DNA from: Candidatus Faecenecus gallistercoris
GTDB taxonomy: Bacteria > Bacillota_I > Bacilli_A > RF39 > UBA660
Length of the DNA stretch: 41,842 bases
Direction of reading: 5' to 3'
Assembly: GCA_018713065.1 (NCBI GenBank)
Contig: DVFU01000023.1
Span: 1-41,842 of the forward strand
Below, in pieces: positions 12,381 through 35,490 of the stretch. The notes beneath the pieces were generated by a model. It saw nothing but the letters and a program-made list of their open reading frames with translations, had not been told where the DNA came from and did no database searches. The first letter of the stretch is position 1. Each line of letters starts with the position of its first letter. Made by a program: the position numbers and the translations under genes.

Positions 12381-12641
12381 TTATAAAATAACTGCTTCTT
12401 TAACGATTTCAGCTAAATAGAAATGCTTGTTTTTAGAAATTGGTTTTGTTTCAACGATTCTAACTACATCTCCAACTTTTGCCTTATTAGATTCATCATG
12501 AGCAGCATATTTCTTAGAATATTTAACTCTTTTTCCATATAATGGATCTTTTTTATATGTTTCAACTAAAACAACAATTGTTTTGTCTTGTTTATCGCTA
12601 ACAACTTTTCCAACAAATTCTTTTGCTAATTTCTTTTCCAT
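12381..12641 (-). CDS. rpsQ: 30S ribosomal protein S17
   Basis: Sequence and operon position. Confidence 0.95.
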
Positions 12642-12650
12642 ATAAACCTC

Positions 12651-12848
12651 CTATTTATCATTTAACTCACGTTCGCGAAGAACTGTTTTTAATCTTGCTA
12701 CCGTGTGTCTTAATTCACGAATTCTTGAAGGCTTTTCCAAATTACCAGTTGCTTGTTGGAAACGCAAATTGAATAATTCTTCTTTTGTTTCTTTGATCTT
12801 AGCGATAATTTGATCAGTGGTTAATTCTCTAATTTCTTTAACCTTCAT
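12651..12848 (-). CDS. rpmC: 50S ribosomal protein L29
   Basis: ORF 12651..12914, trimmed to ATG 12848 ([13 protein letters not shown]..., 65 aa). A GGTGGTG RBS precedes it. It overlaps the rplP 3' end by 11 nt. Confidence 0.93.
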
Positions 12849-13272
12849 TCTTGTCACCACCATTTTCATCTTTTGTAACAAACTTCGTTTTGATTGGTAG
12901 TTTATGAGAAGCAAGTCTCAATGCTTCTTTGGCAGTTTCACGATCGACGCCACCAATTTCAAACATGATCTTTCCTTCTTTTACTACAGCAACCCATTTT
13001 TCTACGTCACCTTTACCTTTACCTTGACGAGTACCGATAGGTTTTGCCGTTAAAGGTAAATGTGGGAAAATATTAATCCATGTTTTTCCGCCACGTTTCA
13101 TATAACGAGTCATTGCTACACGAGCCGCTTCGATTTGATTAGCTGTAATCCAAGCACCTTCCATAGCCATTAAACCATATTCACCTTTTGAAAGTTTTGT
13201 GTTTCCTTTGGAACGACCTTCGTAAGGTAATCTATGTACACGACGGTATTTCGTTCTTGATGGTAATAACAT
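12838..13272 (-). CDS. rplP: 50S ribosomal protein L16
   Basis: [14 protein letters not shown]... Confidence 0.96.
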
Positions 13273-13274
13273 AA

Positions 13275-13928
13275 TTAATTACCTCCTTTAGCCTTTTTTG
13301 TAGGAAGAATTTCACCTTTGTAAATCCATACTTTAACACCGATTTTACCGAATGTAGTATCTGCTTCTGCAAATCCATAATCGATATCAGCTCTCAAAGT
13401 ATGTAGTGGAATTGTTCCCTCATCATAGCCTTCGCTACGTGCCATATCAGCACCATTTAAACGTCCAGAAGCCAAAGTCTTAATTCCTTTTGCTCCAGCC
13501 TTCATAGCGTTACGAATTGCTCTTTTTTGAGCCATTCTGAATGAAGCACGATTTGCAATTTGATTTGCGATTTGATTTGCAACAATCTGTGCATCCATAT
13601 CAGGTTTTTTAATGTCGACAATTGAAATCTGAATATTTTCATCAACCATCTTAGATAATTTATTTTTCATCTTTTCAATCTCTTCGCCACCACGGCCAAT
13701 AATAACACCTGGTTTAGAAGTATGAACGATTACTTCAGTTCTCTTATTATTTCTTTCAATTTCAACTTTAGAAATAGATGAAGCATCTTTTAGATTTTCA
13801 AAAAACTTACGAATCTTAACGTCGTTCATCAAGTACTTTTTGAAATCTTTTTTAGGTGCATACCATTTAGATTCCCAGTCTTTATTGATTCCAATTCTAA
13901 GTCCTGTAGGACTAACCTTTTGACCCAT
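13275..13928 (-). CDS. rpsC: 30S ribosomal protein S3
   Basis: [13 protein letters not shown]...; KH domain. Confidence 0.96.
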
Positions 13929-13945
13929 GTTAACCTCCTCTTAGA

Positions 13946-14278
13946 TTATTTGCTAGCTACCGTAATTACGATATGACTAGTTCTTTTGTCTTTATGACCG
14001 ATGCGTCCTCTGGAATCGAATAAAACTCTTTTCATAACAGGACCAGCATCTACTCTAGCCTCTTTAACATATAAAGTGTTAATATCGGCTTCAAAATTGT
14101 TAACCGCATTTGCAATAGCAGAATTTAAAACTTTTACTACTTTGCGAGCTGCCTTATTATTTGTATTGTTCAAAATAGTAAGTGCTTCGTTAACTTTTTT
14201 TCCACGAATTAAATCTACGACTAAGCGAGTTTTAATAGGTGAAATTCTAACTTGTTTTGCGATTGCTCTTGTTTCCAT
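13946..14278 (-). CDS. rplV: 50S ribosomal protein L22
   Basis: Sequence and operon position. Confidence 0.95.
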   Translation of the reverse strand: METRAIAKQVRISPIKTRLVVDLIRGKKVNEALTILNNTNNKAARKVVKVLNSAIANAVNNFEADINTLYVKEARVDAGPVMKRVLFDSRGRIGHKDKRTSHIVITVASK

Positions 14279-14297
14279 ATATTATCCTCCTTAGTCA

Positions 14298-14576
14298 TTA
14301 TTTTTTAGCAGGCGTTGCTGCTGAATTATGACCACCAAATTTACGAGTTAATGCAAACTCACCCAATTTGTGTCCAACCATGTCTTCTGTTACATAAACA
14401 GGAATGAAATCCTTACCATTATGTACAGCAAATGTATGTCCAATAAAATCAGGATAAATAGTTGAACGACGTGACCAAGTTTTAATTACTTCTTTTTTGT
14501 TAGCCTCATTTAATTTTTTTACTTTTGCAAGCAAACGATCAAAAACATAAGGCTTTTTCTTTGAACTTCTTGCCAT
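14298..14576 (-). CDS. rpsS: 30S ribosomal protein S19
   Basis: ...[30 protein letters not shown]. Confidence 0.96.
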
Positions 14577-14590
14577 ATTCTATATTCCTC

Positions 14591-15421
14591 CTATTTACCA
14601 TTACGACGACGAACAATATACTTATCAGTATTTTTATTATTACGTGTCTTTCTACCAATTGCAGGTTTACCCCAAGGTGTCATTGGTGACTTACGTCCAA
14701 CTGGAGCTCTACCTTCACCACCACCATGTGGGTGATCGTTTGGATTCATAACAGAACCACGAACAGTAGGACGAATACCCATATGACGTTTACGTCCAGC
14801 CTTACCGATGTTAACCAATTCGTAATCTTCATTACCAACTACACCAACTGTAGCATAGCAAGTACCTAGAACTTTTCTTTGTTCTCCAGAAGCAAGACGA
14901 ATCATAACGTATGCTCCATCTCTACCAAGAATTTGAGCACTTGCACCAGCACTTCTTGCTAGTTCTCCACCCTTACCAGGTTTTAATTCGATGTTGTGAA
15001 CATTCGTACCAACTGGGATATTCATAAGTGGTAATGCGTTACCAACTTTAATGTCAGCATTTGGACCACTCATAATTTTTGTTCCAACTGTTAAATCTTT
15101 TGGTGCGATGATATATCTCTTTTCACCATCTGCATAATTAATTAAAGCGATATTCGCACTTCTGTTTGGATCGTATTCGATAGAAGCAACTGTACCGGGA
15201 ATATCCAATTTATTTCTCTTAAAATCGATAATACGGTATTTTCTCTTTGCTCCTCCACCGATATGTCTAACAGTAATACGTCCTTGATGGTTACGTCCAC
15301 CAGTTTTCTTAACTTTAGCTAATAAACTTTTTTCAGGAGTGCTCTTTGTAATTTCGCTATTTACCAAACGAGTCATTTCTCTTTGACCATTTGTATTAGG
15401 TTTGATTGTTCTAATTGCCAT
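14591..15421 (-). CDS. rplB: 50S ribosomal protein L2
   Basis: ...[18 protein letters not shown]. Confidence 0.97.
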
Positions 15422-15433
15422 ACTCTAACCCTC

Positions 15434-15718
15434 CTATTGAAGATCGATTGTTTGGCCTTCTGCTAATTTAACGATTGCTTTTTTGCTACGATTCGTCAAA
15501 CCAGTATAACGTCCAACTCTTCTCTTCTTCGTTTTTACATTAATCGTACGAATAGATTCAACTTTAACATTGAAGATTCTTTCGATTGCATTCTTAATTT
15601 CAACTTTGTTTGCTTTTGGATCAACTGCAAATGTATATTTGCCTTCATCACGATTTAAGCTACCACTTTTTTCAGTAATAACTGGTGCCTTAATAATTGT
15701 TAAATATTTTGTATCCAT
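15434..15718 (-). CDS. rplW: 50S ribosomal protein L23
   Basis: Sequence and operon position. Confidence 0.95.
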
Positions 15719-15719
15719 A

Positions 15720-16346
15720 TTAAGCTAGCACCTCCTCAATTTGTTTTAATGCATCCTCTGTTACAACCATGTAATCAGAAGTAACGATATCCAAAACATT
15801 GATTTCGCTAACTTCTTCTAATAAAACATTTTGTAAATTAGAAGCTGCGAATAATAAATTTTCTTCAATTTCTGGAACAACTACCAAAACCTTTTTATCT
15901 GTTACTTGTAAGTTATTTAAAACAGCAACCATTTCTTTTGTTTTTGGTGTTTCTAATTTTAATGAGTCAAGAACGATTAGTTCACCATCGTTAGCCTTTG
16001 TTGCCAAAGCACTCTTCAATGCTAAACGACGTTCTTTACGATTCATATTGATACTATAATCTCTTGGAACTGGTCCACCGTAAGTACCACCCTTACGCCA
16101 TTGAACAGCACGGATTGATCCTTGACGAGCATGTCCTGTTCCTTTTTGTCTCCATGGCTTTCTACCGCCACCACTAACTTCTGCACGTGTTTTTGTCTTG
16201 TGAGTACCTTGTCTTAAAGATGCTCTTGTTAAAATTACTGCATCGTAGACAACTTTATCATTTGGTGTAATACCAAAGATCGTATTACTAAGTTTGATAT
16301 CTTTTAGTTTTTCACCTTTTATGTTTAAAAGTTTTACTTTTTCCAT
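15720..16346 (-). CDS. rplD: 50S ribosomal protein L4
   Basis: ORF 15720..16352. ATG 16346 has the better spacing (8 nt) from the GGGAGG RBS. Confidence 0.94.
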
Positions 16347-16396
16347 CTTCATATCCTCCCTTCATCACATTTCCATTATTAAACTATTCTCTGTTT

Positions 16397-17110
16397 TTAA
16401 GCCTCTTGTGATGATTCTGTTTCTGCTTCTTTGTTTTCAGGTTCTACATTGTAAACAACTAAATCGATTGGAGTTGCTTTTGTATTTCCCTTTTTAACAG
16501 CAGTTTTAATGATTACGAAAGACTTCTTTGGTCCTGGAACATTACCTTTAATTAAGATAACGTTGTTTTCCATATCGACAGCAACAACCTCTTCATTTTG
16601 AACAGTTCTTGTTGCAGAACCCATATGACCTGGTAATTTTTTACCTTTAATAACGTGCATTGGTAACATAGTACCTAGAGAACCAACACCTCTATGATAT
16701 TGAGATCCATGACCCATCGGGCCTCTCGTTTGATTCCAGCGTTTGATAACGCCTTGGAATCCTTTACCTTTGCTGACGCCTTGTACGTCAACGATATCGC
16801 CTGCTGCAAATGTATCAGCAGCAATTACTTGTCCTAATGTATATTCACTAGGATCTACCCCTCTGATTTCTTTTAAGAAGCGCTTAGGTTCTGTATTAGC
16901 TTTTTTAACATGACCTATAGCAGCCTTATTGCTATTCTTTTCTTTCATTGTGAATGCGCCAAGTTGCACAGCATCATAACCATCTTTTTCTTTTGTTTTG
17001 ATTTGCGTTACAACGTTTGGTTCAATCTCAACAACAGTAACTGGAACTAGTTTGCCATCTTTAGCAAAAACTTGAGTCATTCCAATTTTTCTACCTAAGA
17101 TTCCTTTCAT
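16397..17110 (-). CDS. rplC: 50S ribosomal protein L3 (with acidic C-terminal extension)
   Basis: [15 protein letters not shown]... Confidence 0.96.
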
Positions 17111-17636: not shown

Positions 17637-19214
17637 TTAACTTAAATCAAATTTTTTCGGATTGGAAACTGTCTCTTTTGTAAGTTTCAGAACTTTGTAA
17701 GTGCCAGCTGGTTCTAGTGCCATTTCATGTTCGGCAGAAGTTAAGCTCGCCATTACGATATTATTTAAATCGCGCATACTTTGATCAGACTCATCTAATT
17801 TTGCAAGTAAAGCATCAAAGTATGACATATCCGGTTTCGTTTCCACTTGAAATTGACGTTCGTATCTAGCCTTCTTCTTTTGGAATACAGATGAACGGGA
17901 ATGTTGTAAAATATCCAGTTTCGTTTCATGATCCAATACGTTATAAACAACTAAATGTGGAAAACGACTCACTAACTCTTTGTTAAACGCAGTTTCTTTG
18001 CTAAGCCTAGATGCATCAAATTGAACAGGACCATTCACTGCTCCAAAACCGATTTTTTTATCGGCATTAAACAAATTAGAAAATGTTCCAGAAAAGATGC
18101 GATGCAAAGAATTAGTCGGAAACATCCGGACCTGATTGGACAATGCAGTTTTTCTAAAATAAAACGGATCTCCTTCGATAAAGTTCATAATGACATTCAT
18201 AATAGCAGAAACGTAATCACGACACTGTTCGCCTATTTTATCGAACTCATCGATGTAGACGATACCACGAGATGCCATACTTAAATCAGAGTCACATTGC
18301 GACAAAAGAGAAAAAAATCCATCTTCCAAACTAGTTCCTTTGATACCGGGAGGGACAAAAGTAGAACCTTTGAGTTCAACCATCGGCAAATTCAGATATT
18401 CCATCGCAGCGCGAACCGTCTGAGTCTTTCCCGTACCAGTCGGGCCCACCAATAAAATGGATTCCGTTTTCTCATCCGGCAATGCTGTATAATTCATATA
18501 AATGGTAGTCGCAAGCTGACTAATTTCGTCATCGTGACCAAACACTCGCTCTTTCATGTAAGTCTCTAATCCTCGTAACGAGATATCAGGATTAACAGCA
18601 GGCGTTTGATTGGAAATAATTGTTTCTGGAGCGATGTTCTTATCTAAGTAAAGTCCTTTTAATGTATCCCCTTCAATAGCGATACCAACAACACCCAAAG
18701 AACCAAAAACTTCTGTCTTTTTCACACCATCCGATAATGCTAGTAAACGGCAACGAACACGATTCACATCAGGCTCTGATAACAACTGACTTAGCGATTC
18801 ACTATTTAACGTAACAGTTGGCGAATCTTGATCTAGTCGATAAACTGTTTCCTCTTTTACTTTGGAAAGTGCATGTAAATCGACTTTGCGTTCCACTACT
18901 TTTCCATCTTGAACAGTCACATATAAAATATACTGCCGTTCGGTTTCCCAAAAGAACTGTAACAGAAAGTTCTGATCATCTTTATTATTCGAATGATAAA
19001 TTTCCTGTAAATGGGAAAGAGAAAAGATGTTATCAACTAAATAATTTTCCTCTTCCAATGCCTTTTCAAATGACGGCTTATGATAGATGGTATCCGAACA
19101 AAAGTCATCGTTAACGCAGTATCCTTGTACAATATCAACTGGATACAAGATGTACTCTTTTTCTCCTAAAGGAAGTTTTCCATACCGAATTCCATATTCC
19201 ATTTCCTGTTCCAT
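17637..19214 (-). CDS. ClpX-derived AAA+ ATPase with a novel N-terminal domain. It has no zinc-binding domain, the pore-1 loop reads GIKG, and the IGF tripeptide is retained.
   Basis: The C-terminal ~270 aa align by eye to E. coli ClpX. Shared elements are Walker A LLVGPTGTGKT, Walker B RGIVYIDEFDK, the IGF loop KKIGFGA (codons 18045-18053) and the sensor region ELVSRFPHLVV. GYVG is replaced by GIKG (18336-18347). The ORF-track start at 19301 is a TTG. ATG 19214 (MEQEMEYG) has a GGGGGA RBS 7 nt upstream. Confidence 0.8.
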   Translation of the reverse strand: MEQEMEYGIRYGKLPLGEKEYILYPVDIVQGYCVNDDFCSDTIYHKPSFEKALEEENYLVDNIFSLSHLQEIYHSNNKDDQNFLLQFFWETERQYILYVTVQDGKVVERKVDLHALSKVKEETVYRLDQDSPTVTLNSESLSQLLSEPDVNRVRCRLLALSDGVKKTEVFGSLGVVGIAIEGDTLKGLYLDKNIAPETIISNQTPAVNPDISLRGLETYMKERVFGHDDEISQLATTIYMNYTALPDEKTESILLVGPTGTGKTQTVRAAMEYLNLPMVELKGSTFVPPGIKGTSLEDGFFSLLSQCDSDLSMASRGIVYIDEFDKIGEQCRDYVSAIMNVIMNFIEGDPFYFRKTALSNQVRMFPTNSLHRIFSGTFSNLFNADKKIGFGAVNGPVQFDASRLSKETAFNKELVSRFPHLVVYNVLDHETKLDILQHSRSSVFQKKKARYERQFQVETKPDMSYFDALLAKLDESDQSMRDLNNIVMASLTSAEHEMALEPAGTYKVLKLTKETVSNPKKFDLS

Positions 19215-19301
19215 ACCAAAATCCCCCAACAATTCACGATTTAATATCCTTGTGAACCTTATTATAAAATAGGATCCCAAATTAGTCAAAAAAAACTGCA
19301 A

Positions 19302-20225
19302 TTACTTATAATTACAGTTCGCATTGAATACTTCGATCATTTGCATCGCTTCCTGATACAAAGAACGAATTTGATTTAATTTCATCTTCTTGAAAAACAC
19401 CGTCTTCTCATATTCCTGTTCCAACTTAATCATTCGAATTAAAATCGCAATAAAACGCTTGTAACTTCCTTTCTTACCGATAATCTGATCAAACCAAGAA
19501 TCCATATCGTCGATATTACCAGAAAAGCGTAGAGATGAAAACGTTGCTAAAAACGTTCGGTTTTTCATTAATTCTTTACACAAATAAGATTGTAATCCGT
19601 AAGCATTCGATGTATAACTGCCCGAAATGCTAGAATCGATTGCATATAATGTCGCTGCAATCGTATTGGATAACGGAATCGTTCGAAAAGAATGAATAAT
19701 ATCGATGATTTCTTCTGTCTGTTTGGTATTGATAATCTCTTCCAAAATGTAATCGTCATCCTTGCGAATAACTTGCATTGTCTTCTTATTATAATGAATA
19801 TGACAAATTCCCGTCCGCAATGTGAACGTGTCCCCTTGATCCATAATTTCATTTTCAAACGAATTGACCGCATGGTTATATTCGTGAACTAAGTTATCTA
19901 ATAAGGACATCAATGGAATATTTTGGTAATTTTGTAATACGATTACTTTATCCGTTACAATATGACCATCTTGTAATCTGGGCATACTCGTATAAAAAGC
20001 CTGTTCTCGTTCGTTGTGTTCGTCCCGAATCAAGATCGGCACACTCTCGAAAATTCGCAAAATTTTATGTTCCGCAGATAATCCATATTTTAAAATAAAA
20101 GCAGGGATAATCAAATGAAGTAGATGCCCAATATTTTCTGGATACCGAAACTTCGTATTTAAATTATCTATCGATACTTTCGTCTTCCGAAACAAATCTT
20201 GTACAATAGCAACATTATTTTCCAT
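19302..20225 (-). CDS. Hypothetical protein with a single HExxH zincin-like motif (putative metallopeptidase, family not recognised)
   Basis: NLVHEYNHA motif (codons 19872-19886). ATG 20225 is preceded by a GGGAG RBS and overlaps the polymerase gene 3' end by 11 nt. The ORF-track start at 20234 is a GTG. Confidence 0.6.
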   Translation of the reverse strand: MENNVAIVQDLFRKTKVSIDNLNTKFRYPENIGHLLHLIIPAFILKYGLSAEHKILRIFESVPILIRDEHNEREQAFYTSMPRLQDGHIVTDKVIVLQNYQNIPLMSLLDNLVHEYNHAVNSFENEIMDQGDTFTLRTGICHIHYNKKTMQVIRKDDDYILEEIINTKQTEEIIDIIHSFRTIPLSNTIAATLYAIDSSISGSYTSNAYGLQSYLCKELMKNRTFLATFSSLRFSGNIDDMDSWFDQIIGKKGSYKRFIAILIRMIKLEQEYEKTVFFKKMKLNQIRSLYQEAMQMIEVFNANCNYK

Positions 20226-21429
20226 CACGGTCACTCCCTTCTTCTTTCAAACTAGCAGGCATAATGATATCTTTACCGAACTTACTACGAATCTGATCGA
20301 CAGCTTCCTGCACTTTAGAGGAACCATCATCGACAGTATCGGTATCAAAAAGAGAAATCTGGGTCATATTCGTTTTGACAAAGTTACCCAACCGAATACC
20401 AATCAAACGAATCGGTTCACCTTTCCAAGCCCGTTCAAACAAAGCGTATGCCTTTTTAAAAATGTCTTCACTGACATTGGTAGGATTTTCCAATTTGCAC
20501 TGGTGTGAATAATTGACGAATGCATCCGTTCGAATGATGATTGCAATACTAGTCGCATATAGTTTCTTTTCACGCGCTTCTAATCCAACCTCATCGGCTT
20601 GAGATAAAAGCATTTTACGAATATATGATTTATCGGTCACATCAAATGGCAACGTAGCAGTCGTAGAAATGCTTTTCCGCTCCGCCCGTTCGGAAGTCAC
20701 CGGTGTATCATCGATACCCAGAGAGGCATTGTGCATGTAAATAGCATTGCTTTTAAAGTACTTTGTGAGTAACGAAACATCTGTTTTTGCTAACTCCCCA
20801 ATCGTGTGTATTCCAAGTGCCTTCAATGTTTCAGCACTTCGTTTTCCGATGAACAAAAGATCTCCAACATCCAAAGGCCACATCTTCTCTTCCACCTCAG
20901 AAGCAAACAATGTATGAACCTTATTCGGTTTTTCGAAATCACTAGCCATTTTAGCACAAAGTCGATTATTCGCAATTCCAACGTTCACCGTAATTCCAAA
21001 CTTCTCATGAATCTCATCTTTCATCTGATAAGCAAGCCGAATCAAGTCATCATATAAATAGTGTGTCCCAGTCATATCTAAAAAACACTCATCAACCGAA
21101 AATCGTTCGACCGTCGGTGTAAACTGTAAATAATATTGATACAACTTATCACTTTCTCGTTTGTATAATTCGTGATTGGCTGGAAAAACTTTCAAACCTG
21201 GACATTTTCTTCTCGCTTGATACAAAGTTTCTGCTGTTTTTACACCATACTTTTTAGCAACTGGACTTTTCGCTACGACAATACCACGTCTAGCATCTTC
21301 ATCGCCACCTATGACAGAAGGAATATTTCGAATATCTTCCGTCGCTCCACGGCGCAACATATCGACAGCAGTCCATGATAAAAAAGCATTGTTAACATCG
21401 ATATGAAATATGATTCGTTCTTCCTTCAT
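20215..21429 (-). CDS. dinB: Y-family DNA polymerase (Pol IV / UmuC-like translesion polymerase)
   Basis: N-terminal IFHIDVNNAFLSW (a UmuC-like DxN variant of the DMDAFFAS motif), catalytic SVDECFLDMT, and the little-finger region. 404 aa. Confidence 0.85.
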   Translation of the reverse strand: MKEERIIFHIDVNNAFLSWTAVDMLRRGATEDIRNIPSVIGGDEDARRGIVVAKSPVAKKYGVKTAETLYQARRKCPGLKVFPANHELYKRESDKLYQYYLQFTPTVERFSVDECFLDMTGTHYLYDDLIRLAYQMKDEIHEKFGITVNVGIANNRLCAKMASDFEKPNKVHTLFASEVEEKMWPLDVGDLLFIGKRSAETLKALGIHTIGELAKTDVSLLTKYFKSNAIYMHNASLGIDDTPVTSERAERKSISTTATLPFDVTDKSYIRKMLLSQADEVGLEAREKKLYATSIAIIIRTDAFVNYSHQCKLENPTNVSEDIFKKAYALFERAWKGEPIRLIGIRLGNFVKTNMTQISLFDTDTVDDGSSKVQEAVDQIRSKFGKDIIMPASLKEEGSDRDGK

Positions 21430-21521
21430 AACACACCTCTTCTAAACAAGCTTCTATAAGTTCTACTATAAGTATAGAAAATTCTGATGAATTTGAAAAT
21501 CGAACAAAAGAATTTTTTTCA

Positions 21522-22271
21522 TTATTTTGAACTCAAGAACATCCGGTATCCTTTTTTAATCGCATCGTCGATATTTTCTTTAGGAAACAATGTCTGTAAT
21601 TCAAACATAACCAAAGAGTGTTTATGATCATAACAAAAAGACTCAGCCGCATAATGCATACCCGGAATATCGTAAAAAAGGCCTTTGATTGCAGCACGAT
21701 TTAAAATAGGATCGATGACCATCTCACTGTACTCCCAAATCGTTCCAGGATACAAAAATGTAGAAGGTTTGCTAAAGCGATGTAACAAACGCCACTTCTG
21801 AAAATATAAAAAGTGTGTCAGTTCGTGAATCAAATTAGAGAACACCTCTCCCATCGAGCTGCTACATAGATAGATAGAAGAAGTCTCAGAAATCCCAAAA
21901 TGAGCAGGTAAAATTCCAACATAAACAGAAATTACCTTCATGGACTCCGGCCAATCACAACCGAGTACCTGCGATAAAAACGACAAAAAAGACTTGCTAG
22001 AAACATCGAAATATTGCTGATAGTCAATTAACAATCGGTCCATATCGAACGATTCTTCCTGATAAGAACGAATGACTTCCTCCTCGATTTCTTTGATAAT
22101 TCCATCTTCGGTCATATTGCTACGAATAATTTCTCTTAAAGCCGGAAACGTTCGAATCATCGCATCCCGTCGATTGATAAAATCATCTTCTCGTTCATTT
22201 TGATAAAACTGAATCACATAATTCACATTTTCTTCTACCGACAATTTATGAAAAACAATTTTAGGAACCAT
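21522..22271 (-). CDS. Hypothetical protein with an HExxH zincin-like motif (second putative metallopeptidase)
   Basis: NLIHELTHFLYFQKWRLLH (HExxH codons 21813-21827). I moved the start to ATG 22271 (MVPKIVF), which is preceded by a GGAGG RBS. Confidence 0.6.
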   Translation of the reverse strand: MVPKIVFHKLSVEENVNYVIQFYQNEREDDFINRRDAMIRTFPALREIIRSNMTEDGIIKEIEEEVIRSYQEESFDMDRLLIDYQQYFDVSSKSFLSFLSQVLGCDWPESMKVISVYVGILPAHFGISETSSIYLCSSSMGEVFSNLIHELTHFLYFQKWRLLHRFSKPSTFLYPGTIWEYSEMVIDPILNRAAIKGLFYDIPGMHYAAESFCYDHKHSLVMFELQTLFPKENIDDAIKKGYRMFLSSK

Positions 22272-22322
22272 AACTACCTCCAAAGACAAATAAAATATCC
22301 ACAAGAGAAGTGGATATCTTTT

Positions 22323-34914: not shown

Positions 34915-35490
34915 ATGAATCTAGTACCAATCGTAGTAGAAAACGAACAAAATGGAGAACGTTCTTACGACTTGTATTCGAAGTTACTAGCAAGTCGCAT
35001 CGTATTTATTAACGGCGAAATTAACGACTCTGTTGCCAGTACAGTAATTGCAGAACTACTGTATTTAGATTCCTTATCAAACGATGATATCAGTATTTAC
35101 ATCAATTCCCCAGGTGGAATGGTTACGGCCGGATTTGCCATATACGACACGATGAATTTTATCAAAAGTGATGTTTCAACCATCGGCATGGGACTTTGTG
35201 CCAGTATGGCTGCATTCTTACTTTCATCCGGCCAAAAAGGAAAACGTTACTTACTTCCCAATGCTGAAGTCATGATTCATCAACCACTTGGAGGTGCCCA
35301 AGGACAAGCCACAGAAATTAAAATCGCATCAGATCATATTTTAGAAACGAAAACAAAATTAAATAAGATTTTAGCCAAAAACACCGGTCAAAAACTGACT
35401 AAAATTATGAAAGATACCGAACGAGACCATTATTTAGACGCAAAAAAAGCCAAAGAATATGGCTTAGTGGATCACATCATTCACTCTTAG
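34915..35490 (+). CDS. clpP: ATP-dependent Clp protease proteolytic subunit ClpP
   Basis: Ser-His-Asp triad contexts [14 protein letters not shown] and RDHYLDA. An AGGTGA RBS precedes it. It is the only plus-strand gene in the window. Confidence 0.95.

Follow-up and report, generated by a model that had tools for sequence, protein, structure and literature searches.

What does a protein do when its gene starts inside the 3' end of a DNA polymerase gene and its sequence matches no known family? This question is raised by a 41,842-nucleotide (nt) stretch of DNA from Candidatus Faecenecus gallistercoris (contig DVFU01000023.1). The whole stretch is called the window here, and all loci in it are read on the minus strand unless marked. 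The gene under study (P0001; 19302..20225, stop codon included) encodes a protein of 307 amino acids (aa) with an HExxH motif and follows dinB, the gene of the Y-family DNA polymerase IV. It was analysed through its open reading frame (ORF) and translation, its homologues and an AlphaFold2 model. The answer that we favour, with a confidence somewhat below even, is that the protein may be an accessory zinc peptidase tied to damage tolerance.

The ORF is a real gene and not a chance ORF, as indicated by 610 homologues at E<=1e-3 among 5.8 billion clusters, many of them at E<1e-75. Its ATG is at 20225-20223 and its TAA stop at 19304-19302, as read from the window sequence. The gene dinB (20215..21429; 404 aa; Pfam IMS, IMS_C and IMS_HHH) has its TAA at 20217-20215, so that both genes overlap by 11 nt. 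The GGGAG Shine-Dalgarno sequence of the HExxH gene (20234..20238) is located inside the 3' end of dinB, 8 nt ahead of the ATG. The start and the ribosome-binding site agree with a preliminary description of this DNA, which had been made from the sequence alone. That description also took the overlap to mean coupled, stoichiometric expression. This does not hold as a general feature, since the 11-nt overlap was found only in the window and in one 81%-identical relative, and the distance is -1 to about 90 nt in other species. In that relative (L146:680-900), a frame change at six consecutive G interrupts dinB and may reflect either a true frameshift or a fault in the assembly; the HExxH gene is intact there and the 11-nt overlap is kept. 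The dinB product of the window matches NCBIfam PRK03103 with an E of 2.6e-91 and 306 bits, where the curated cut-off of the model is 381. No hydrophobic segment was found in the HExxH protein (the best 19-residue Kyte-Doolittle mean is 1.41), and its isoelectric point is near neutral; it is therefore reasonable to place it in the cytoplasm, as had already been done tentatively for want of a signal peptide or transmembrane segment.

The conserved residues of the family were identified from alignments of two core sets of 28 and 64 sequences and a wide set of 58 sequences that reaches about 20% identity. The HEYNH motif (residues 114-118; 19872..19886) contains H114, E115, N117, and H118, the presumed zinc ligands and catalytic base, and the family motif around this site is HE(Y/F)NHA(V/I)NS. 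Both core sets exhibit invariant H114, E115, N117, H118, R137, G139, E162, E163, N166, and T170. D110 and T167 are invariant among the 28 sequences, and their conservation among the 64 is 90% or higher. The C-terminal domain contributes four further residues, S206, Y209, N222, and R233, that do not vary in the core family (28 sequences). In the wide set, E115, R137, G139, N166, and G236 are invariant, and H114, N117, H118, and E163 are each at least 90% conserved. The motif that had been noticed in a single sequence is thus conserved among the homologues. The acidic third ligand that had been suspected downstream of it can also be named. E163 of LEEIINTKQTE, at the start of the second long helix (EEIINTKQT, residues 162-170; 19716..19742), is the candidate third zinc ligand, with N166 in a supporting position. 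R137-T138-G139 (19809..19817) are located on the beta-strand after the active-site helix, and we infer a role in substrate binding for R137 and G139. The conservation pattern is consistent with an enzymatic HExxH...E metal site.

The gene context was compared in 80 species-level loci and the window (81 species). The HExxH gene is located directly downstream of a Y-family polymerase operon in 42 of the 81 species. The gene directly upstream is of the DinB type (about 400 aa) in 31 species. A long Y-polymerase (about 490 aa) and a 145-aa YolD-like gene precede the HExxH gene in 11 species, and this 145-aa gene falls just under the YolD (PF08863) threshold in six of seven tested members. All polymerase-HExxH pairs are on the same strand, with gaps of -1 to about 90 nt and a median of about 25-30 nt. 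The two polymerase types are true paralogues, and both are present in the window genome and in another genome (G523). The genomes with the long-polymerase context have the long type only in four of five cases, and the genomes with the DinB context have DinB only in five of five. The HExxH gene sits behind whichever Y-polymerase type the lineage keeps. The outer neighbours vary both upstream (iPGM, aldolase, and others) and downstream (MurJ-like/FemAB, MurL-MurD, radical-SAM, and the S10 operon) while the polymerase-HExxH pair persists. In the protein tree, the DinB context is found in deep clades, and the YolD context forms one clade nested among sequences without an adjoining polymerase. The family was found in none of the 16 genomes without a Y-polymerase, where about three were expected, and in 49 of the 235 genomes with one, in counts that are uncorrected for kinship and genome completeness. 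The window genome itself has dinB in the window and a second polymerase of 514 aa with a YolD-like gene on contig C124 (L145:1430-3374). The second polymerase is YqjW/UvrX-like with a conserved ...GGHHE tail, and the YolD-like gene after it (139 aa) is followed by no HExxH gene.

Some of the polymerase operons that end with the HExxH gene also exhibit possible signs of damage regulation. A LexA-like box was defined as a site with at most two mismatches to CGAAC-N4-GTTCG. Such boxes, of the CGAAAATATGTTC type, were found upstream of 10 of the 44 polymerase genes paired with a HExxH gene versus 0.7% of 885 other upstream regions, and several of them abut a TATAAT -10 box. The window genome carries lexA. 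Upstream of that gene (L148:960-1010; contig C28 of genome G000), one perfect LexA box, CGAACTACTGTTCG, was observed together with another that is weaker, TGAACGTTTGTTTG, and the perfect box indicates that the standard Firmicutes SOS operator is in use in the window genome.

The AlphaFold2 models of the HExxH protein are confident. The whole protein has a predicted local distance difference test score (pLDDT) of 89.3 and a predicted template modelling score (pTM) of 0.89, and the core (residues 58-186) has a pLDDT of 91.5 and a pTM of 0.82. The elements are predicted in the following order: three helices, a sheet built of long strands, a helix with the HExxH motif (105-122), a four-strand meander, a helix with EE..N (159-182), and a helical domain. 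The strands (64-98) precede the HExxH helix in the models. A search of BFVD with the full model returned weak matches (E 0.06-0.3; best target-normalised TM-score 0.48), many of which are viral entries of the SprT-like, XE, or zinc-protease kind. A zincin fold is suggested by the motifs and the element order, rather than by a fold match.

The position of the HExxH gene as the last gene in Y-polymerase operons and the LexA-box promoters of some of these operons lead us to propose a role in damage-tolerance proteolysis. We infer the metal binding, the catalysis, the link with the polymerase, and the substrate as follows. The product would be a soluble cytoplasmic protein, most likely a gluzincin-type zinc metallohydrolase. 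Its metal ion would be coordinated by H114 and H118 from one helix together with E163 from a later one, with E115 acting as the catalytic base, and the cleft between the beta-rich core and the helical C-terminal domain would be lined by R137, N166, Y209, and R233. In the lineages that retain the gene, it has come to lie last in the operon of whichever Y-family polymerase is present, either DinB or the long YqjW/UvrX-like polymerase with YolD, and a LexA-box promoter would drive a fair share of these operons. The role of the protein would be proteolysis in DNA-damage tolerance. Our preferred sub-mechanism is that proteins stuck or cross-linked on DNA would be removed or trimmed, after which the adjacent polymerase would copy past the peptide remnant. 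DinB-family polymerases bypass peptide-DNA adducts. The sub-mechanism follows the logic of SprT/Wss1/SPRTN, and SPRTN has been reported to couple cross-link proteolysis to translesion synthesis (PMC5128727, PMC3561950). The specific form of this proposal, an SOS-operon protease with a fold unrelated to SprT/Wss1 that clears DNA adducts or stalled proteins for bypass by the Y-polymerase, is in our estimate rather unlikely. The family members are described best as probable zinc hydrolases recruited into translesion-polymerase operons, for which the proteolysis of cross-links or roadblocks would be the most attractive mechanism.

Several findings weigh against this proposal. The contexts of the HExxH gene are clade-specific, so the adjacency to polymerases comes down to very few evolutionary events. 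In 38 of the 81 species, the gene is found in unrelated housekeeping contexts, which include FolD/patatin/YbaK upstream, MraY-HExxH-FtsW, sigma factor/YlmC/ApbE, and Lon/ValRS. The divergent members have no polymerase beside them in the contexts examined and are accompanied by miscellaneous housekeeping genes. DinB is present in 235 of the 251 genomes (94%) of the bacterial family and the HExxH family was detected in only 12-20%, and 80-88% of the DinB-bearing genomes are without the HExxH family. No LexA box was found at dinB of the window itself, where only a weak promoter-like site (9/12; 21471..21499) precedes the gene. The fold gives further cause for doubt. In the PDB, Foldseek found nothing of significance for either the full model (best E 1.4) or the core (best E 0.16), with TM-scores of at most about 0.25, and the PDB library should hold solved structures of the SprT, Wss1, and thermolysin types. 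The Pfam profiles gave no match to a SprT-like, M78, or other zincin model. No recognisable DNA-binding domain was identified in the protein, and its terminal helical regions are only mildly basic (isoelectric point 9.2) beside an acidic core (5.1). The description of the gene product as a polymerase-associated metalloprotease is thus upheld for the conserved HExxH motif and for the adjacency in half of the species, and the zincin fold is unconfirmed: the confident model has a sheet, an HExxH helix, and a Glu helix in this order, but no significant PDB match. The expectation that homologues adjoin polymerases elsewhere is likewise borne out in 42 species and for two paralogous polymerase types, but not in 38 species or in most DinB genomes, which are without the gene.

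The HExxH protein was compared with the known systems that it resembles. It shares the HExxH metalloprotease logic with SprT/Wss1/SPRTN (PF10263, WLM), and the weak BFVD matches to SprT-like/XE proteins are the only structural hints for the family. However, the third histidine of HExxHx5H is missing from the family (HExNHxxNS), PF10263 matches only one of 28 members (E 0.11), no zinc-ribbon or other DNA-binding module is evident, and the protein of about 300 aa has a large helical C-terminal domain and no match among solved structures. The ImmA/IrrE proteins (COG2856, Peptidase_M78) are similar in that an HExxH protease is genetically linked to a translesion polymerase and the damage response. 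They differ in that PF06114 matches none of the 28 members, no XRE repressor or helix-turn-helix gene is found among the neighbours in 81 loci, and the HExxH gene is co-directional with and downstream of the polymerase gene instead of divergent, in a genome that has LexA. UmuD and YolD/YqjX are also encoded by small genes in Y-polymerase operons, sometimes behind a LexA box. UmuD is a self-cleaving Ser-Lys protein of the S24 family, and YolD, the proposed Gram-positive analogue of UmuD, is an SH3-like barrel (PMC6511836). The HExxH protein has neither fold and no S24 or YolD (PF08863) match, and its gene is also found behind genes of the DinB type, for which no such subunit exists. The suggestion that it takes the place of UmuD is therefore abandoned: DinB-type polymerases need no UmuD, and the gene follows the YolD-like gene in 11 species, so the protein is additional to YolD. 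The gluzincins (clan MA(E): thermolysin-like, M48/M56 minigluzincins) are similar in having the HExxH helix after a beta-sheet and a conserved Glu on the next helix, supported by a polar residue three to four positions further along. Gluzincins carry ExxxD at the third-ligand helix, where the HExxH family has EExxN. Unlike them, the family inserts a four-strand beta-meander of about 35 residues between the two helices, and it has no sequence or fold match to any member.

The HExxH family is new and restricted to reduced-genome gut Bacilli of a single GTDB family, to which all 610 relatives belong, and its association with polymerases is also new. The Pfam, NCBIfam, and PADLOC profiles gave no match to the 307-aa protein, so that no PADLOC model assigns it to anti-phage defence. 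Pfam gave no meaningful match on 28 family members, a PDB sequence search with three family profiles returned nothing relevant, and a scan of viral contigs detected no relatives. None of the 610 homologues is informatively named, and 358 family representatives were found among 1.84 billion. Among 300 sampled genomes of the class, the family is present in seven of the 34 genomes of the GTDB family of the window and in none of 28 other families. Within that GTDB family, a narrow profile matches 31 of 251 genomes and a wide profile matches 49 of 251, sometimes as tandem paralogues. The record titles of the relatives denote gut or rumen metagenome-assembled genomes, all labelled Bacilli, Tenericutes, or Mollicutes and including Candidatus Scybalousia, and the carriers are all uncultured gut bacteria. 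The gene is accessory and not core, since most DinB-bearing genomes are without the family. In genomes without it, dinB is often followed by the S10 operon (directly in five of 20 fetched loci), and a sister species of the same genus has neither the HExxH gene nor the ClpX-like gene at the dinB spot.

Two genomes have tandem arrays of two to four divergent paralogues (G435:C29:33909-37758, equal to L138:6853-10810, and G411:C34:10769-12599), and the G435 array adjoins the gene of a MucBP-domain surface protein. A homologous C-terminal domain with the motifs HELNH and GLEEGIN is found in a 1041-aa protein (L142:9224-12349, equal to L137:3-3029) encoded in a type VII secretion locus. It is preceded by three WXG100 genes and one of DUF4176 and directly followed by an EssC-like FHA/FtsK ATPase gene (neighbours at L142:4420-6496 and 12387-16991), and the protein may be a secreted effector or component of the type VII secretion system. 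Among 5.8 billion proteins, this domain was found in no other large protein; a 706-aa fusion joins an HExxH-family domain to an unknown N-terminal part. These two fusions indicate that the domain is modular, and they do not explain the stand-alone genes. A polymorphic-toxin reading was considered from the type VII fusion and was rejected, because the fusion is single and the stand-alone genes have no conserved partner.

The gene downstream in the window encodes a ClpX-like AAA+ ATPase (17637..19214) that matches AAA and ClpX-like profiles; it is regarded as a neighbour and not as an established partner. A TTG-started ORF (17637-19301) does abut the HExxH stop, as had been described. However, this 5' extension is probably not real, and the start is probably the ATG at 19214, which has a GGGGGA ribosome-binding site and leaves a spacer of 87 nt. 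The extension is doubted because a strong promoter-like site (TTGACT-17-TATAAT, 11/12; 19261..19289) is located between the HExxH stop and this ATG, and because the gene call in a relative has a ClpX-like protein of 523 aa after a 78-nt gap. The same promoter-like site argues that the ClpX-like gene is transcribed on its own. The gene is the sole ClpX relative in the genome, with 54 bits to TIGR00382, far under the cut-off, and a normal ClpP is encoded in the window (34951-35487, plus strand). The ClpX of the lineage seems strongly diverged, and the neighbour resembles an ordinary housekeeping gene transcribed from its own promoter. A single five-gene operon through the ClpX-like gene was considered and is weakened by this promoter-like site and by a terminator-like hairpin (22292-22320) after the AAA_14/DUF4143 gene. 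A second HExxH protein of 249 aa (IHELTHF; 21525-22271; no Pfam match) is encoded just upstream of dinB. It was rejected as a paralogue of the 307-aa protein, since hhalign covers 19 motif columns only at a probability of 6.9%. It is 47% identical to the product of the same-position gene in a relative (L147:297-1052; motif HETCH) and is absent from the 80 species loci.

Other explanations of the HExxH gene were weighed against damage tolerance. The protein could serve some general or unrelated cytoplasmic function as a zinc peptidase or hydrolase, and the adjacency to polymerases could be inherited order in small, packed genomes. We regard this explanation as unlikely but as one to be taken seriously. 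The context classes track the clades of the protein tree, the species with other contexts are many, DinB works without the HExxH gene in most genomes so that the gene fills a variable slot, and the operons of this lineage mix unrelated housekeeping genes. On the other hand, a chance landing behind a second, paralogous polymerase has a rough probability of about 1-2% (about eight contexts and genomes of about 1100 genes), and inherited order alone fits poorly with the enrichment of LexA-like boxes ahead of these polymerase genes or the absence of the family from all 16 genomes without a Y-polymerase. The same operon place behind both polymerase types and the 11-nt overlap in the window are also consistent with a regulator that cleaves, activates, or clears the Y-polymerase or its accessory protein in the manner of UmuD. 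Polymerase V is controlled by proteolysis, through UmuD cleavage and through turnover by Lon and ClpXP, and this established knowledge lends the idea some appeal. It is nevertheless improbable. A YolD processor is excluded, because five of five DinB-context genomes have no operon of long polymerase and YolD, and a substitute for UmuD or YolD is excluded by the co-occurrence with YolD in 11 species. The HExxH gene does not accompany most DinB genes in the lineage, and the overlap, hence tight coupling, is not conserved.

The downstream neighbours raise two further explanations. Action on peptidoglycan precursors or cell-wall peptides would suit the order HExxH, MurL, and MurD-type ligase in 14 species. 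It would also suit the order HExxH, in some cases DUF218, MurJ-like flippase, and FemAB in most of the DinB clade, and the order MraY, HExxH, and FtsW, at the usual murD position, in four species. MurL (UDP-MurNAc-L-Ala-L-Glu epimerase) and the MurD-type ligase directly after the HExxH gene, at L001:6915-9600 and 14 further loci (for example L082, L099, and L133), suggest that these gut Bacilli use the alternative route of L-Glu ligation and epimerisation, which was first described in Xanthomonas (PMC8788868), and an incomplete peptidoglycan precursor pathway has been reported for RF39 (PMC10868615). A cell-wall role is very doubtful all the same, as each such context is confined to one clade, the protein resembles no known cell-wall peptidase, no cell-wall gene is adjacent in the window, and those genes always lie opposite the polymerase and have essential housekeeping roles of their own. 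The ClpX-like gene within three genes downstream in 21 of the 81 species, including the window, would agree with a split FtsH-like protease in which the HExxH protein is the peptidase partner of the adjoining AAA+ unfoldase. We consider this highly improbable, because the gene is the only ClpX of the genome and, with ClpP present, probably the ordinary ClpXP motor, and because it has its own strong promoter-like site in the window. Moreover, MurL-MurD are often located between both genes, and no ClpX-like gene is nearby in the large DinB clade. Co-occurrence with the ClpX-like gene was dropped as a test of partnership, since this gene is the only ClpX of the genome. Little credence is given to the idea that the protein is no hydrolase, its fold being a new scaffold outside the zincins that serves in binding or as a structural element and may be related to the protein of the type VII secretion locus. 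The missing structural neighbour among known zincins, the 1041-aa protein between the WXG100/DUF4176 genes and EssC, the tandem arrays of paralogues, and the fast divergence of the family agree with it. However, exactly the residues needed by a gluzincin are invariant, the type VII fusion is single, and no conserved immunity-like partner accompanies the stand-alone genes.

Bacterial handling of proteins cross-linked to DNA is still poorly understood. To our knowledge, no dedicated bacterial cross-link protease that acts with a translesion polymerase has been described. The words metallo, protease, and peptidase are absent from the main text of a survey of bacterial Y-family polymerases (PMC6511836). 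The HExxH protein behind both DinB-type and Pol V-like operons, some of them with LexA-like boxes, is a concrete and testable candidate for such an activity. If the protein is indeed an SOS-operon protease with a fold unrelated to SprT/Wss1 that clears the way for the polymerase, the partnership of SPRTN and translesion synthesis would have been invented independently in reduced-genome gut bacteria. Even without a link to the polymerase, a confidently modelled and unannotated fold with gluzincin-like residues would be a new entry in the catalogue of metallopeptidases.

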